64,000 nucleotides of DNA from a virus. The position numbers and the translations under genes were made by a program. Below are positions 5,488 through 38,140 of the stretch, in pieces (position 1 is the first letter of the stretch; each line of letters starts with the position of its first letter). The notes beneath the pieces are model-generated. The model did not search any database, was not told where the DNA came from, and saw nothing but the letters and a program-made list of their open reading frames with translations. The stretch lies in IMG/VR virus record IMGVR_UViG_3300045740_000163, positions 22,391 to 86,390 of that record; one strand, 5' to 3'.

Positions 5488-5560
5488 TCGCGAGGGACGG
5501 AATCGAACCGCCCGTTTCTGAGCTATCTGCTCAGCGTTCTTCCTCTTGAACTACTCACGC
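5488..5560 (-). tRNA. Atypical tRNA-like gene, GAT (Ile) at anticodon position
   Basis: D arm GTTC/GAAC with GG; anticodon stem CTGAG/CTCAG, loop CAGATAG; T loop TTCGATT; non-canonical acceptor and T-stem lengths and A at position 33. Confidence 0.65.
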
Positions 5561-5592
5561 AGCCCGATACCAGTGGTAGAGCGGGAACTTTT

Positions 5593-5754
5593 TCACTTTA
5601 GCGTGGTGTTCTCGTGCGAATAACGAGGATCGATTTCCACGCCGCGATAGACACACCGGGGGCTTGCTTCACGGGTCGCTTTTTGCCACTCAAGCACCTC
5701 TTTCTGGTGCTCAACAGTGTCATACTGTTTGCCGCGATACGTTAAAACAGTCAT
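5593..5754 (-). CDS. DUF4278-like small basic protein
   Basis: MTVLTYRGKQY...CVYRGV, the twin YRG signature; ATG at 5754 preferred over 5829. Confidence 0.7.
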   Translation of the reverse strand: MTVLTYRGKQYDTVEHQKEVLEWQKATREASPRCVYRGVEIDPRYSHENTTLK

Positions 5755-5775
5755 GGGTAGCCTGTAACTCCCTAC

Positions 5776-5802
5776 ATTGTAAGATTTGGTAGCGATTGAT
5801 AC
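5776..5802 (-). promoter_or_regulatory. NtcA-type box GTA-N8-TAC next to a TACAAT -10 element
   Basis: GTAGCGATTGATAC at 5789-5802; minus-strand TACAAT at 5781-5776. Confidence 0.55.
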
Positions 5803-5886
5803 TGTATTACTGCTATACAAAACACACATTTAATTGTTGAGCCCACACTTCAGCCGTAGAATTTACGTGTACTCTGCATTCCTCCC

Positions 5887-8553: not shown

Positions 8554-8892
8554 ATGTCAAACGCCATGATGTCCATCAAAATCTACAAACACTGCGACAC
8601 CTGGGCCTTCACGGATTTATCCAAAGGTCTCAGAGACGAGCCTTTCGTCTGTGGAATCCCGGAAATTATCAATTACTTCATCGAAAACTTTAGCGATCCT
8701 TCTAAAGAAACGCACAGAATTATATTTTCAGCACGAAATTTCCCGCATTCACATGGAAAACTCGTAAAAACCGAGATGGAGTCCGGAGGAGCATGGTATT
8801 CCTACGAAAACTCTATGAAAGGCTGGCTTTGCCCCGCAACATTGGAGTTTTTTGAAGAACATCCAGACGAACTGTACGTAAGGTTTGAGTAG
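8554..8892 (+). CDS. DUF6717-like protein
   Basis: WAFTD..GL..EPFV.G and GWLCPA..FF motifs. Confidence 0.7.
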   Translation: MSNAMMSIKIYKHCDTWAFTDLSKGLRDEPFVCGIPEIINYFIENFSDPSKETHRIIFSARNFPHSHGKLVKTEMESGGAWYSYENSMKGWLCPATLEFFEEHPDELYVRFE

Positions 8893-8920
8893 AAAAAGGT
8901 AAAACAGAAAATTTTTCACC

Positions 8921-8947
8921 AATCGCTCCCACGCGGGGCGATTTTTT
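8921..8947 (+). terminator. Rho-independent terminator between the DUF6717-like gene and the convergent tRNA
   Basis: AATCGCTCC-CACGC-GGGGCGATT followed by T run. Confidence 0.7.
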
Positions 8948-8956
8948 GTATCTGTA

Positions 8957-9029
8957 TGGGGGTCGCGAGGATCGAACTCGCCTGAAATCGATTATGAGTC
9001 GACCGCTTTCACCAGATAGCTAGACCCCC
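8957..9029 (-). tRNA. tRNA with CAT anticodon (elongator Met or lysidine-type Ile2)
   Basis: GGGGGTC/GACCCCC acceptor, loop CTCATAA, T arm GCGAG-TTCGATC-CTCGC, discriminator A, CCA not encoded. Confidence 0.92.
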
Positions 9030-9179
9030 GTGCCTGCCACTATACTGACAATGGACCTTTTGGGGTCAGTTTACTCCGCCGAAAACCATAGGTATCTCGC
9101 CCGCGTCGTCGCGCGAGCTCTATATATAAAAAAAAGGCCGAATTGCGGGCAGATTGCGCCCACTATGTAACACAAACCT

Positions 9180-9300
9180 CGCGCGTGCGCGTATGCGCGT
9201 GCGTGTGTGCGTGTATGCGCGTGCGTGTACGCGTGTGCATGATGCGCGCGTGGGCGGGGGTGCGCGTTTTTCTACGCGCGTGTGCGCATGGCGTGCGCGC
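9180..9300. repeat. Alternating purine-pyrimidine tract (Z-DNA-prone)
   Basis: Perfect RY alternation 9180-9241 (62 nt) plus shorter runs to 9300. Confidence 0.85.
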
Positions 9301-9364
9301 TTCCTCTCCCTGCTGACTGAGCTTACCGAGCTCACCTAGTGTGCCAATCTGCAATCCGGTTGCA

Positions 9365-9443
9365 AGGGGTTGACCTAGTGCGCCGTGGTGTGATCTCATT
9401 AAGGGGTCGAAGGGCGAGAGCCCGATCGGCAGAACCTGGACAA
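9365..9443 (+). promoter_or_regulatory. Probable major early promoter followed by rrn-like boxB hairpin and boxA
   Basis: AGGGG-TTGACC -35 (weak -10); GAGA-tetraloop hairpin 9406-9430; GAACCTGGACAA at 9432-9443. Confidence 0.55.
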
Positions 9444-10350
9444 CCTGCAGCCCACGCGTCGCCACCCGGTACGATCCCGGCGGTTGATCAGCCAAGCCCT
9501 GCGAACCTACGCGTTCCCGCTTGTGCCGATCGCCAAACCGTCACTCCATCGTTCCGACAGGCTCCGCACCATGCTGTAGGATTCCAGCAACGGGCCGAGA
9601 GGCTCGACGACATAGCAGCTCAGCCATCGCTCAGCTGGCCGCAGACGGAACGTCGCCATAAGTAGGCTCCCCAGGGAGCCGAGACGGCGAGACGACGGAC
9701 TGTAGGCTAGGTGTTCCGACAGGCTGCGGACTGATCCCCCTGAGGCTAGTAGCCATAGGTGCGGCCGCCGAACCATTCAAGGCCCGCATCAGCACTAGAA
9801 TCTCCCGCCCACCCGGCGATGGCCAGCGCGTCACGCTAAGGGAAGCTCGGAGCTAGTGTCTCGCCCGGAAGGCCCTTAGTCCGCTGCTGTAGGTTTTTAA
9901 CTTCCTACAGTTGTGCTGAGTTACAATCGCCATACTCTGACGACAGGCAAGCCGGGTGGGACCCGTGAGAAGTCCAGGGATCGAGCGTGGTGAGAAGTAA
10001 CGCAATACCTAAACACTTTTTATCCGCAGGGATGTTGTGTCCGAGTACCTGCATCAAACACAGGTACGCTGGCACAAGCCGCAGGAAGTTATCTTCTACG
10101 GTCATCATCCCGGCGGGGCACAATTTAATAGCTTTTGTGCGCATTATGTGCGCCATAACTGACTTTAATTTGGGGTCAGTTTCCCGGATTCACTCTTTAG
10201 TGGGGCCTGGTATTACCTACCGGGCTCTACTTAGGGGTGTGTTTGTTTGTATCCGTGATCACGTTTGATCATGGTGCAAAGTTTCGTTTCTGCTTTTATG
10301 TCTGACGCTCTCCCTGTGCGCTATAGTGCACACTGAGGGCCTCTACCCTC
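9405..10350 (+). ncRNA. Candidate large, highly structured non-coding RNA (about 950 nt)
   Basis: No credible ORF; more than 10 local hairpins and about 10 long-range complementary segments of 6-10 bp, several crossing. Confidence 0.6.
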
Positions 10351-10372
10351 ACCTTTTACTACAGTTTCACAG

Positions 10373-10690
10373 GTGTATTTAAACATGACTGAACTGACAA
10401 TCAAGACCAACAATCAGCCACCCCCGCTGTTCAATCCCTGCGAACTTTCGCAGTCTCAGCGTGCCAAACTGCGCCGCCAATTTGATTGGATGAGCGACGA
10501 TGAGTTTGACCATAATTGTTCATTCTTTCTCTATCGCGGTTGGTATTACAACCTCTCTGACTTCCTGACTAACACTAACCCTGACGGTATGTTTAAGGGT
10601 TGGCACGGTATCGCTAGCGATTCCTATTTCACAGGAACGCTAGTCAAACTGTGCGGCAACGATGTTATCGTCGGCCGTTATTCTTCCTGA
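10373..10690 (+). CDS. Early hypothetical protein
   Basis: FFLYRGWYYNLSDF...WHG..SDSYF.G pattern; first gene of the early cluster. Confidence 0.7.
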   Translation: MYLNMTELTIKTNNQPPPLFNPCELSQSQRAKLRRQFDWMSDDEFDHNCSFFLYRGWYYNLSDFLTNTNPDGMFKGWHGIASDSYFTGTLVKLCGNDVIVGRYSS

Positions 10691-10724
10691 TTACTGTAAC
10701 TAACACCAACAACATCACAACACC

Positions 10725-14124: not shown

Positions 14125-14152
14125 TTGACTGTTCCGACAGGCATGGTATAGT
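14125..14152 (+). promoter_or_regulatory. Sigma70-type promoter
   Basis: TTGACT-N16-TATAGT; spacer contains GTTCCGACAGGC, also present twice in 9.5-9.7 kb. Confidence 0.7.
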
Positions 14153-14201
14153 GTGAGGGCCTCTCTTCTCATCACATCTTCTACGGTCATCATTTCGCAT
14201 C

Positions 14202-31453: not shown

Positions 31454-31687
31454 CTACAGCTCCAGCAAGTCACCAAACGAAGGGAGATTGACACCATATG
31501 CAATACAGTACTTTATAATATTCTCAAGTAACTTAGCCCTTATTAAATAATTAGCATATACTACTTCAAGCACCTCCCTGGACTCTTCAGCACTAAGCTT
31601 ATCCATGCCATCGAGAAAAGCTCGGTGGGTGAATTTTTGCTCAAGCGTTAGGTGAGACTTAAGCTTATCCAGCAACTGTTCTGACAT
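31454..31687 (-). CDS. nblA: NblA-like phycobilisome degradation protein
   Basis: LTLEQKFTHRAF...MDKLSAEESREVL..VY..YLIR aligns by eye with NblA LSLEQQFSIRSF... Confidence 0.65.
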   Translation of the reverse strand: MSEQLLDKLKSHLTLEQKFTHRAFLDGMDKLSAEESREVLEVVYANYLIRAKLLENIIKYCIAYGVNLPSFGDLLEL

Positions 31688-36797: not shown

Positions 36798-37160
36798 ATG
36801 ACACAGCAACACCCCATCACCCCACCACCGGAGCTGGTGCAGCAGTGGGACTGCGAATGGAGGGAGCAGCAAAACGCCCCAGTTATCGGCTGGTCGGCCA
36901 ATCTTCTTGCCTATGTCGCTGCTCGCGCCGCACAATGGGGCGCCGACCAGGAACTGGAGGCGTGTTGTGAGTGGCTTCACTGGCAAAACCTGGCCACACA
37001 TCCCGAACTGATCCCTTCGCTCCGCGCCGCCCGCCGCCCCAAGGCACCGAGCTTGAAGGAACAGGCGCTTGAGATGCTTGAGAACGCTTGGGAAGGTGGG
37101 CACGTCAACAACAACGCCGCCCAAACCATCCGCCGCGCCCTGGAGGCTCTCAATGACTGA
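36798..37160 (+). CDS. Hypothetical protein (GC-rich island, family A)
   Basis: PPPELVQQW...AAQWGADQELEACCEWL. Confidence 0.75.
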   Translation: MTQQHPITPPPELVQQWDCEWREQQNAPVIGWSANLLAYVAARAAQWGADQELEACCEWLHWQNLATHPELIPSLRAARRPKAPSLKEQALEMLENAWEGGHVNNNAAQTIRRALEALND

Positions 37161-37638
37161 TTACAAAGCAACGTCCGATCAGTGGAATCAAGTTCAGCGA
37201 TGTGCCGATGTAGTTGGCAGCTCTGATTGCTCTGCAATTCTTGAACTCCGCGCCAGGATCGAGATACTAGAGGCTGCAGCTAACAAGCACATCGTCGAAA
37301 CCAATTCCAACATCGTGGCCTTGGCGAGCCGCGTCGAAGCGCTGGAGGCTGTCAAGCGCCCAGCATCAAAGGTCTACGAGATCAGCGAGCCGCTGAAGTT
37401 GACGCCTGAGCAGGCGCAACAGGTCAGGGATCTGCTCGCACCCAACTCCAAGCCAATTCCTAATTCCTCCCAAATTAGGAGTTCGCTGGTGGAGCGGGTG
37501 CAGGGCGCGATCCACGATGTGGAGTTCCCACACGGCGACGACGAAGCCCGCGCCGCGATCCGCGAGGTGGCGGCGTGGTTGGACGAAAACACCGGCGGTG
37601 ACGCCGCCTGGATGCTGACGCAGGAGGCCAAGCGATGA
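37153..37638 (+). CDS. Hypothetical protein (GC-rich island)
   Basis: MTDYKAT...ILELRARIE.LEA...EARAAIREVAAWL; internal Met start preferred. Confidence 0.7.
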   Translation: MTDYKATSDQWNQVQRCADVVGSSDCSAILELRARIEILEAAANKHIVETNSNIVALASRVEALEAVKRPASKVYEISEPLKLTPEQAQQVRDLLAPNSKPIPNSSQIRSSLVERVQGAIHDVEFPHGDDEARAAIREVAAWLDENTGGDAAWMLTQEAKR

Positions 37639-37910
37639 CACGCCTACTTTCACCACCCGCCAAAATCATCCGCCAGTGGGAAGCCGAATGGGACACCAAC
37701 GGTGCCGCCCATTGCGACAGCGTTCTCTACATCGCCGCCAAAGCTGCAACCTGGGGCGCGAAGGCTGCCATTGAGTGCGCTCTCAGGGACACCGCTTCAT
37801 GCCACTGGCGCGTTGCTGATGGCCCTGAAGATGGAGTGCAACTGGTGCGTGCCAGTGATCTGGTGGCTTGGGCTGCTGCCATCGGCAAGCGTTATGAGGT
37901 TGAAGAATGA
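37635..37910 (+). CDS. Hypothetical protein (GC-rich island, family A)
   Basis: PP.KIIRQW...YIAAKAATWGA shared with the 36798 ORF. Confidence 0.7.
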   Translation: MTRLLSPPAKIIRQWEAEWDTNGAAHCDSVLYIAAKAATWGAKAAIECALRDTASCHWRVADGPEDGVQLVRASDLVAWAAAIGKRYEVEE

Positions 37911-38140
37911 CTGACCTATCACCCGCCGCGCAGGCGGTGCTGGATGCCGTTGAAGACGACTGCATACACCCCACAGACTTGCACCATATTGCCGCCGCCG
38001 CCCTGCGAGCTGCTGCGGATCAGGTGGTGCCAGAAATGGTCAACGCTGTTGGCGACGAACACGACAACGCCCGCCGTGAGCAGTGGATTCGCATTCGGCG
38101 CAAATTCCTTGCCATCGCTGACGAACTAGAAAACCAATGA
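37907..38140 (+). CDS. Hypothetical protein (GC-rich island, family B)
   Basis: MTDLSPAAQAVLDA...AAALRAAADQVVP. Confidence 0.75.
   Translation: MTDLSPAAQAVLDAVEDDCIHPTDLHHIAAAALRAAADQVVPEMVNAVGDEHDNARREQWIRIRRKFLAIADELENQ

Follow-up and report, generated by a model that had tools for sequence, protein, structure and literature searches.

The early leader of coliphage T7 carries a boxA and RNase III sites, and lambdoid phages carry nut sites. Among large folded RNAs, the functions of the phage RNAs GOLLD and ROOL are to our knowledge still unknown, and we know of very few bacterial or phage RNAs longer than 500 nt with a conserved, covariation-supported fold. The portions of the published accounts that we drew on place GOLLD in phages and prophages near tRNA genes, and give the boxA consensus of the cyanobacterial 16S-23S spacer as GAACCTTGAAAA. 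We analyzed a window of 64,000 nt from an uncultivated, NblA-bearing freshwater cyanophage (NblA scored 30.9 bits, with the cut-off at 25), whose DNA polymerase is 29% identical to its closest cultured counterparts, from Pseudanabaena phages. The + strand of positions 9405-10110 is a conserved multi-domain structured RNA that continues into a structured leader at 10113-10384. We put a probability of about 0.6 on the reading that a large non-coding RNA has its folded core at 9405-10110 and continues to 10384, core and continuation together forming the first ~0.7-1 kb of a boxA-assisted rightward early transcript.

Alignments of homologues separated conserved from variable parts of the core between 9444 and 10077. 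The 5’ domain (9444-9548) is variable: at least three unrelated sequence versions occur, modules are exchanged among variants, and the alignments gave no consensus helices within it. It is followed by the most conserved part (9549-9620, 84% mean column identity in 19 sequences), which contains a hairpin at 9572-9589 with the invariant loop UAGGAUUC and a second hairpin at 9591-9606, whose loop is mostly GNRA and in which one pair reads GC in nine sequences, CG in six, GU in four, UG in two, and UA in one. The core model built here (R1) scored 98.6 bits at 9549-9620 and had no other match in the genome. A multi-branch domain (9621-9726), with the hairpin 9665-9680 inside it, is closed by a helix of 9621-9628 with 9718-9726; four of the seven pairs in this helix changed on both sides, such as one that reads AU in 13 sequences and CG in eight, and the helix encloses either of two unrelated interior modules. 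The following domain (9726-9884) is closed by the long-range helix GCGGACUGA/UUAGUCCGC, formed by 9726-9734 with 9876-9884. At least eight of its nine pairs were present in all 22 sequences, with the arms 122-173 nt apart and with compensatory changes, pair 2 being CG in 13, GC in eight, and UA in one, and pair 3 GC in 16 and AU in six. Inside this domain, the helices 9792-9798/9853-9859 and 9802-9808/9845-9852 showed seven pairs changed on both sides, and a GNRA-type loop lies at ~9867-9872. The hairpin at 9886-9911 (z = -1.8) keeps a conserved UUUAAC-containing loop constant on three stems (CUGUAGG/CCUACAG, UCAAAG/CUUUGG, and CUGUAGAA/UUCUACAG). The 3’ domain (9912-10032) is again variable, with at least two unrelated modules and inserts of 25-85 nt in some variants. 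Last comes a hairpin of ~19-20 bp at 10035-10077 (z = -2.4), with internal mismatches that include A-G. Kept in all 21 sequences that cover it, with alternation of UG and CG, this hairpin is the most widely kept element and is also present in more distant relatives that have no core (L003, L007, L017, and L021).

The fold was evaluated by covariation and by folding energy. The homologues, 22 distinct sequences drawn from IMG/VR and from metagenomes, were gathered by an exact 19-letter core seed and are therefore biased to close relatives; in them, 98.3% of cells paired compared to 92.2 ± 0.4% after shuffling. Both sides changed at 18 pairs versus 10.3 ± 1.5 in shuffled alignments, none of 500 shuffles reaching 18, and the covariation score was 0.223 versus 0.112 for shuffled alignments and 0.03-0.06 when partners were slid. 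Using 20 shuffles per strand, 9405-10350 (MFE -404.9 kcal/mol) folded with z = -7.0 on the + strand and -3.96 on the - strand. Among its pieces, 9615-9735 (z = -3.1) and 10190-10335 (z = -6.8) were more stable than shuffles, while 9549-9620 (z = 0.07) and 9736-9875 (z = -0.5) folded no better than shuffles, so support for the core comes from covariation and not from energy. The RNA was shown to be read from the + strand: G-U accounted for 122 of 1316 paired cells, which the opposite strand could not form, and the loops read GNRA or UUCG on the + strand. Since the alignment contains swapped non-homologous modules, the global architecture and the helices beyond the conserved ones are uncertain.

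An earlier note, made from the sequence of this phage alone, had described the region as pseudoknotted and had listed nine long-range pairings. Of these, the helix 9726-9734/9876-9884 was well supported, two were compatible with the 22 sequences, and six were not kept. The compatible pairings, 9550-9556/9646-9652 and 9623-9630/9816-9823, could form in most sequences; the latter is the sole helix that crosses others and is in competition with covarying nested ones. No pseudoknot was demonstrated. The pairings that were lost begin at 9519/10071, 9808/9951, 9564/9758, 9472/9977, 9452/9985, and 9497/10025. The last (9497-9503/10025-10031) and a CCUG/CAGG pairing had also been considered as leader-trailer pairings of the 5’ and 3’ flanks, and neither was kept in the 22 sequences. 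An outer helix, 9559-9567/~9913-9922, predicted in the subset of the window type, was discarded on visual inspection, as neither the other subset nor this phage itself supports it. The same note also proposed local hairpins. Those at 9591-9606, 9665-9680, 9887-9910, and 10316-10332 showed compensatory changes on both sides. The hairpin at 10045-10067 was kept with one-sided changes only, the one at 10157-10181 was kept with altered arms (judged by eye and uncounted), and at 10253-10273 the sequence was kept with no covariation.

A promoter-like site was read from the sequence at 9370-9398 (+), where TTGACC precedes a weak, TG-preceded -10-like hexamer. Most homologues keep a -35-like TTGAC, TTGTC, or TTTAC and have better -10-like hexamers (GATGAT, CATACT, GAGAAT) at the same spacing; the -10 of this phage is poor, and a consensus scan found no sigma-70 site at 9370-9398. 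Next comes a 5’ hairpin with a GAGA tetraloop at 9406-9430 (MFE -15 kcal/mol, z = -2.2), in a boxB-like position, the place of which is taken in homologues by a different hairpin with a GAAA, GACA, or UUCG-type loop. The boxA-like motif GAACCTGGACAA follows at 9432-9443, with no more than two changes in all 21 homologues that cover the site. It agrees with the cyanobacterial spacer consensus, as given in the part of the source used here, at ten of 12 positions, and the motifs of the homologues are one to four positions off GAACCTTGAAAA. The order of hairpin and then boxA, shortly past the promoter-like site, was found in 21/21 homologues and in two otherwise different relatives (L017 and L021), and more distant relatives have GCACCTAGACAA or GCACTTAGACAA following a hairpin. 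Sites with three or fewer mismatches to boxA numbered 75 in the window versus 73 expected. A match of this quality is therefore common by chance, and the weight of this motif comes from its conservation and position. Contrary to what had been proposed, the RNA does not follow the motif but contains it in its 5’ end. A second boxA was sought, and the sole candidate, a site with three mismatches at 9960-9971, was not conserved.

The structured leader (10080-10384, +) runs from the core to the first early gene, whose ATG is at 10385. It contains hairpins at 10138-10152, 10157-10181, 10191-10239, and 10246-10280, the last with TGATCA-N4-TGATCA, and a conserved stem-loop at 10304-10343. In the 14 sequences compared, 95.3% of leader cells paired versus 89.8% after shuffling, and seven pairs changed on both sides versus 4.1, a value reached by two of 500 shuffles. 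Five both-side-changed pairs and an invariant U-G pair were found in the helix 10304-10320/10327-10343 itself. Covarying + strand stems thus extend to 10343, ~40 nt upstream of the ATG, with no convincing promoter or terminator between the fold and the gene, so that the RNA makes up at least the 5’ portion of the early transcript. A free-standing non-coding RNA, as first envisaged, is only a possibility. A second promoter may lie in the loop of 10304-10343, since a -10-like TATAGT sits there in close relatives. The position ahead of the early genes suggests that the RNA would be made first on infection.

RNA libraries also contained the region. One riverine metatranscriptome yielded a 471-nt contig identical to 9385-9855, and contigs of variants were present in three other RNA libraries, one of them bridging the core and the first gene. 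These are assembled contigs of depth 2-16, in which DNA carry-over is possible and strand, ends, and level are unreadable, and some begin at 9347, 9382, and 9385, before the point at which transcription is proposed to start. Four of the 24 sequencing runs listed were recorded as RNA, and the parts they left uncovered are uninformative.

The mechanism that we infer from this arrangement, from start point and boxA function to co-transcription, processing, and any function of a released RNA, would proceed as follows. Host RNA polymerase would start near 9400 and transcribe the small hairpin and the boxA-like element first. By analogy with host rRNA operons, the boxA-like element may recruit a NusB/NusE-type complex, and the polymerase so modified would resist pausing and termination and favor correct co-transcriptional folding. 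It would then make the GC-rich multi-domain RNA and continue into the early genes. The ~20-bp hairpin at 10035-10077 would be the likeliest site for a double-strand-specific RNase to part the folded RNA from the early mRNA. This hairpin has the features of an RNase III-type duplex of the T7 early type (~20 bp, a mismatch, and a location between transcript segments), and we regard it as a candidate RNase III-type processing site at which cleavage is predicted.

What becomes of the RNA afterwards can be read in two ways. We tentatively consider that the 650-nt core, cut free at the 20-bp hairpin, could become a stable, abundant, trans-acting early RNA that would either assemble with itself like GOLLD and ROOL or titrate a host factor or a defence as a decoy or sponge, with its peripheral modules under diversifying exchange among co-occurring strains. 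It is likewise possible that the whole 1 kb is a purely cis-acting front of the early mRNA, in which the folds time or gate the genes through attenuation, stability, or sensing of the host state, and no separate RNA exists. The unbroken course from fold to first gene, the covarying stems close to the ATG, and the RNA-library contig covering core and gene all fit such a leader. However, a 700-nt multi-domain fold with long-range helices far exceeds known leader devices. Moreover, distant relatives replace the core wholesale and keep the downstream leader and genes, as would be expected of a separable module more than of a gene-specific regulator.

We think it improbable that the region is instead a row of independent small elements, such as terminators, operators, processing hairpins, and promoter pieces, in a recombination-prone intergenic region. 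The exchange of modules among variants would agree with this, as would the recurrence of pieces at the promoter at 14125-14194, the conservation of TGATCA-N4-TGATCA in sequence without covariation, and the two core pieces without excess stability. But helices whose two sides lie 100-170 nt apart covary whichever interior module they enclose, so that 9621-9884 at least must fold as one molecule. Structured RNAs also act as primers or in R-loops, as in ColE1 RNA II and the T4 origin transcripts, and a replication-origin transcript made where the two arms diverge would account for the location between divergent units, the A/T tract and the long alternating purine-pyrimidine tract just upstream (9110-9300), the GATC pair at 10257-10272, and an iteron-like repeated motif in more distant relatives. 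We give it only a slim chance, because the cumulative GC skew does not turn here, and the boxA and the continuation into genes suit a transcription unit.

The chance that the models overlooked a diverged representative of GOLLD, ROOL, the group I or II introns, RNase P, or tmRNA is slimmer still. The RNA is large, phage-borne, and beside tRNA genes, as GOLLD and ROOL are in the accounts consulted, which also divide GOLLD into one conserved and one variable half. The tRNA gene noted earlier as its neighbor is a tRNA-Met at 8957-9029 on the strand opposite to the RNA, and a tRNA-Ile lies at 5488-5561. However, Rfam 15 gave no family at gathering score, at E ≤ 10 in the 1.9 kb at 8800-10700, or at E ≤ 1 in 11 homologue loci, which leaves GOLLD, ROOL, introns, RNase P, and tmRNA without a match; the matches obtained were tRNA and low-complexity chance ones on the alternating GT/GC tract. 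ARAGORN found no tmRNA. The RNA family at 9405-10110 is absent from Rfam 15 and uncatalogued, and with covariation, a + strand reading, and a place at the head of the early arm, the earlier proposal of a new or divergent large structured RNA was borne out.

Our searches showed the family to be confined to one phage clade. A blastn search in 'distant' mode with 9030-10372 found nothing among GenBank phages. In IMG/VR, three exact-pattern scans, each with a different conserved block, all recovered the same six contigs along with two contig ends; with a 16-letter pattern, 15 of the 21 matches were due to chance. GTDB species-representative genomes gave 14 pattern matches, of which none extended past 20 nt. 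R1 had no match in 29 other loci, among them distant relatives including L017 and L021, in the genome behind L102, or in 151 genomes of that genome's phylum (a sample, searched with stricter filters). The portions consulted of the literature on GOLLD and ROOL, structured RNA of cyanophages, and boxA and RNase III in phage early transcripts held no description of this RNA, and the 10,006 candidate viral RNAs of PMC10690425 may include pieces of it.

Finally, 9405-10350 was confirmed as non-coding, in agreement with the original observation of ~1 kb without a credible open reading frame. The longest frames inside are 108, 110, 93, and 89 aa, and none matches PHROG or Pfam; across ten frames in and around the region, the sole match to PHROGs and Pfam was DUF6717, in the upstream gene at 8554-8892. 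A protein-coding or pseudogenised region is highly unlikely, because the open frames vary from homologue to homologue, variable sites in the homologue alignment have no 3-base periodicity, and just 53 of the 217 distinct indels are multiples of three. The one point in its favor, stop-free minus-strand runs of up to 159 codons in some homologues, is expected at 62% G+C. G+C is 60-67% over 9150-9850 compared to ~47% in the genome, and a further GC-rich island at 37001-38000 has no similarity to 9405-10384.

Together, these results make the family a new case of a large RNA with a clear transcriptional context, placed first in an early operon behind a host-type boxA. Its more than 20 natural variants with swapped modules should be useful to define the essential core and for structure work, and studies of cyanophages and their hosts gain a concrete target. 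Should boxA and large early RNA prove to be linked across phages, this would point to a common and undescribed phage use of the host rRNA transcription machinery, and if the RNA is released and acts in trans, boxA-driven, rRNA-style production of giant RNA would be a general strategy of early infection.

With GOLLD and ROOL, as far as the accounts used here describe them, the RNA shares a size class of 0.6-0.8 kb, a phage-borne location adjoining tRNA genes, many covarying helices, and a division into one conserved part and other variable ones. It differs in that neither covariance model matches it, and in that it heads an early operon and comes with a boxA. With the T7 early leader and lambdoid nut regions it shares a host-type boxA soon after the early promoter and a long hairpin before the first early gene, whereas here a conserved fold of 600-700 nt separates the two. 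The antitermination signal of rrn leaders and spacers likewise has a small hairpin directly before the boxA (here a 12-nt match at 10/12), lies just past the promoter, and is followed by a long RNA that is highly structured and untranslated. Unlike in rrn operons, the product here is not rRNA, one boxA-like copy was seen, and no flanking leader-trailer helix is supported. The order of the elements, hairpin and then boxA, is that of rrn and not that of the lambda nut site.

The stretch at 9405-10350 is bordered by a tRNA-Met gene (8957-9029, minus strand) and by the first early gene (ATG at 10385, plus strand), which opens a long series of small plus-strand genes. Its description in the earlier note as lacking a credible ORF was upheld. 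ORFs of the stretch (up to 110 aa) had no match in PHROGs or Pfam. Among 22 distinct aligned versions, variable sites favoured none of the three phases in any 90-nt window, so that no 3-base periodicity was seen, and only 53 of 217 distinct indel events (37 of 167 for indels up to 12 nt) came in threes. The longest stop-free runs varied in frame and strand between homologues. With no family matches, no phase bias, indels not in threes and inconsistent frames, a protein-coding reading is excluded for practical purposes. G+C was 60-67% over 9150-9850 versus about 47% for the genome.

Relatives in IMG/VR were found via flanking proteins (8 and 17 loci). A homologous interval was recognisable in six IMG/VR contigs at 67-88% identity, and three exact-pattern scans of this database returned the identical six contigs plus two contig ends. 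Scanning metagenome contigs with one 19-letter pattern yielded 52 stretches, 25 of them true homologues by blastn; none of the 14 pattern matches in GTDB species-representative genomes was real. After duplicate removal, 24 distinct versions besides the window were retained, and 21 of these were aligned with the window (alignment A2), the short fragments L050, L051 and L086 being left out. Because a single conserved block served as the seed, the set is biased to one clade.

Folding of 9405-10350 was more stable than that of shuffled sequence, with z = -7.0 on the plus strand and -3.96 on the minus strand (20 shuffles per strand). The signal was uneven piece by piece: z was -2.2 for 9405-9445, -3.1 for 9615-9735, -1.8 for 9885-9925, -2.4 for 10020-10085, -2.3 for 10085-10200 and -6.8 for 10190-10335, and near zero for two core pieces, 9549-9620 (+0.07) and 9736-9875 (-0.5). 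The decisive evidence for structure is comparative. RNAalifold on A2 gave a consensus of 61 pairs in 15 helices, in which 98.3% of 1316 cells paired (shuffled, 92.2 +/- 0.4), 18 pairs had both-side changes (shuffled, 10.3 +/- 1.5; reached in 0/500 shuffles) and 82 cells had such changes (shuffled, 25.2). The covariation score was 0.223 versus 0.112 for shuffles, a comparison in which kinship among sequences can outscore shuffles without structure; it was 0.03-0.06 when partners were slid by 1-3 columns, and these controls, together with pairs of multiple types, argue against kinship as the only explanation of the excess. The best plus-strand helices were the hairpin 9591-9606 and the pairings of 9621-9628 with 9718-9726, 9792-9798 with 9853-9859, and 9802-9808 with 9845-9852. 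Helix 9726-9734/9876-9884 kept at least 8 of 9 pairs in 22/22 sequences, with both-side changes at two positions (one-column register corrected). Covariation of helices joining sites 100-170 nt apart, whichever of the unrelated modules lies inside them, means that 9621-9884 at least folds as a single molecule. G-U pairs (122 of 1316 paired cells) and GNRA or UUCG loops on the plus strand point to plus as the RNA strand, for a structure itself predicted on that strand.

Folding energy and covariation thus bear out the large structured RNA proposed in the earlier note; six of its nine long-range pairings were not kept. Helix 9726-9734/9876-9884 is the one well-supported pairing, and two more were compatible in most sequences. 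One of these, 9623-9630/9816-9823, changed on one side only and is in competition with helix 9621-9628/9718-9726 as well as the local hairpin 9816-9836, both of which covary; the other, 9550-9556/9646-9652, is confined to the 14 sequences having that module. Given this outcome, no pseudoknot is demonstrated.

The 5' end has a TTGACC at 9370, with which most homologues combine a -10-like hexamer at a spacing of 17-18 nt; in the window itself the -10 is poor, and a consensus promoter scan reported no promoter at this site. A hairpin (9406-9430, plus strand) and a boxA-like motif, GAACCTGGACAA (9432-9443, plus strand), come next. Two changes or fewer separate the motif from its counterpart in 21/21 homologues, and in the more distant relatives L017 and L021 GCACCTAGACAA or GCACTTAGACAA follows a hairpin, the sequence beyond being otherwise different. 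The boxA of the cyanobacterial 16S-23S spacer is reported as GAACCTTGAAAA (10.1101/2021.01.08.426015). The phage motif is identical to it at 10/12 positions. A match of this quality is not significant taken alone, so the argument is carried by conservation and position. BoxA recruits NusB/NusE, and the rrn antitermination complex also helps co-transcriptional RNA folding. To our knowledge cyanobacteria have no Rho, which makes Rho protection an unlikely purpose here. A candidate second promoter lies upstream at 9318-9345 (CTGACT, 18 nt, TAGTGT), near which, at 9347, an RNA-library contig of a variant starts; ACCTAGTG[T/C]GCC occurs in duplicate at 9334 and 9373. A different GC-rich stretch occupies the equivalent place in L017 (5130-5720) and L021 (5290-5720), in the order promoter-like TTGACA/TTGACG, hairpin, boxA-like motif, several CTTGTCAG-like copies and a shared long hairpin.

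No element is kept more widely than this hairpin (10035-10077, about 20 bp), which distant relatives also have and which is a natural candidate for a processing site. Plus-strand hairpins go on downstream of it. Across 14 leader sequences, two distant relatives among them, 95.3% of cells paired (shuffled, 89.8%) and 7 pairs had both-side changes (shuffled, 4.1; reached in 2/500 shuffles), five of them, plus an invariant U-G, in stem-loop 10304-10343. A -10-like TATAGT in its loop is present in close relatives and absent from distant ones, and a transcript begun there would be without the conserved 5' arm. The terminator scan gave no convincing terminator in 9400-10385; its sole listed site, 10334-10351, loses the T-tail in homologues, and its other match in the gene-free interval (9244-9267) is upstream of the RNA start. 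Because stems continue downstream without a convincing terminator, the fold and the early genes most likely belong to a single transcription unit. TGATCA-N4-TGATCA (10257-10272) is kept in sequence in 14/14 relatives without covariation, and in distant relatives (L003, L020) three copies containing GATC are spaced 10 nt apart; these sites may serve as an operator for a protein or as a methylation cluster. The leader 18-mer 10092-10109 recurs at 14177-14194, 30 nt downstream of a strong promoter (TTGACT...TATAGT, 14125-14154). The spacer of that promoter holds the third copy (14131-14142) of a core 12-mer (9551-9562, 9713-9724); three copies were reached in 0/100 shuffles.

Contigs identical to 9385-9855, 10111-10261 and 10319-10558 were found in a riverine metatranscriptome, and variant contigs in three other RNA libraries; one, of 1164 nt, extends from the core across a replaced module into the first gene. 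These contigs show presence in RNA libraries, as distinct from transcription, strand or ends. Homologue alignments showed whole sub-domains between conserved helices (9444-9548, the interior of 9629-9717, 9760-9790 and 9912-10032) swapped for unrelated sequence in varying combinations. Contigs of L002, L006, L010, L012, L014, L018 and several metagenome loci end or start inside the tRNA-to-first-gene interval, which fits high strain-level diversity and mosaicism; assembly failure at the upstream low-complexity repeat tract would look the same. That tract (9110-9300), where two arms diverge, comprises TATATATA plus A8, then about 120 nt of alternating purine-pyrimidine repeats (GTGCGC-like, a 25-nt family in 5 copies); it is longer or shorter in relatives and replaced by unrelated sequence in L013 and L011. 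An exact 14-nt direct repeat (9059-9072, adjoining the tRNA-Met gene, and 10169-10182, within the early leader) forms in each copy the 3' arm of an ACTGAC...GTCAGT hairpin; two such matches arose in 26/100 shuffles.

The source record (86,390 bp, IMG/VR), of which the window covers positions 22391-86390, has direct terminal repeats. An NblA gene is present at 31454-31687 on the minus strand (Pfam 30.9 bits, cut-off 25), the phage's DNA polymerase is closest to those of two Pseudanabaena phages (29% identity), and the DNA runs containing the stretch come from riverine, wetland and freshwater-sediment metagenomes. From these features the phage is read as an uncultivated freshwater cyanophage. 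The NblA family acts in phycobilisome degradation, and the gene's start overlaps head-to-head with a plus-strand gene start at 31686. A small ORF (5593-5829, minus strand) matches DUF4278 slightly under the Pfam cut-off (23.6 versus 25.3 bits). A second island of 60% G+C (37001-38000), which has no sequence similarity to the RNA region, is probably coding, since its G+C by codon position is unequal (0.69, 0.56, 0.56).

Rfam 15, searched for known families, matched nothing other than tRNA. A covariance model of the most conserved core part (R1, 76 positions) scored 98.6 bits on the window and had no other match in the phage genome, in 29 other loci, distant relatives included, or in a sample of 151 genomes from the phylum of a cyanobacterial MAG under strict filters. 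Since R1 misses L017, the window RNA represents a distinct sequence family at the equivalent genomic position. We conclude that the RNA is genuine, large and structured and belongs to a new family; it is best interpreted as a folded, boxA-led head to the early transcript. The GOLLD and ROOL models do not match it; it resembles those RNAs in size, phage origin and tRNA neighbourhood, and its 5' signal is like that of an rrn leader.
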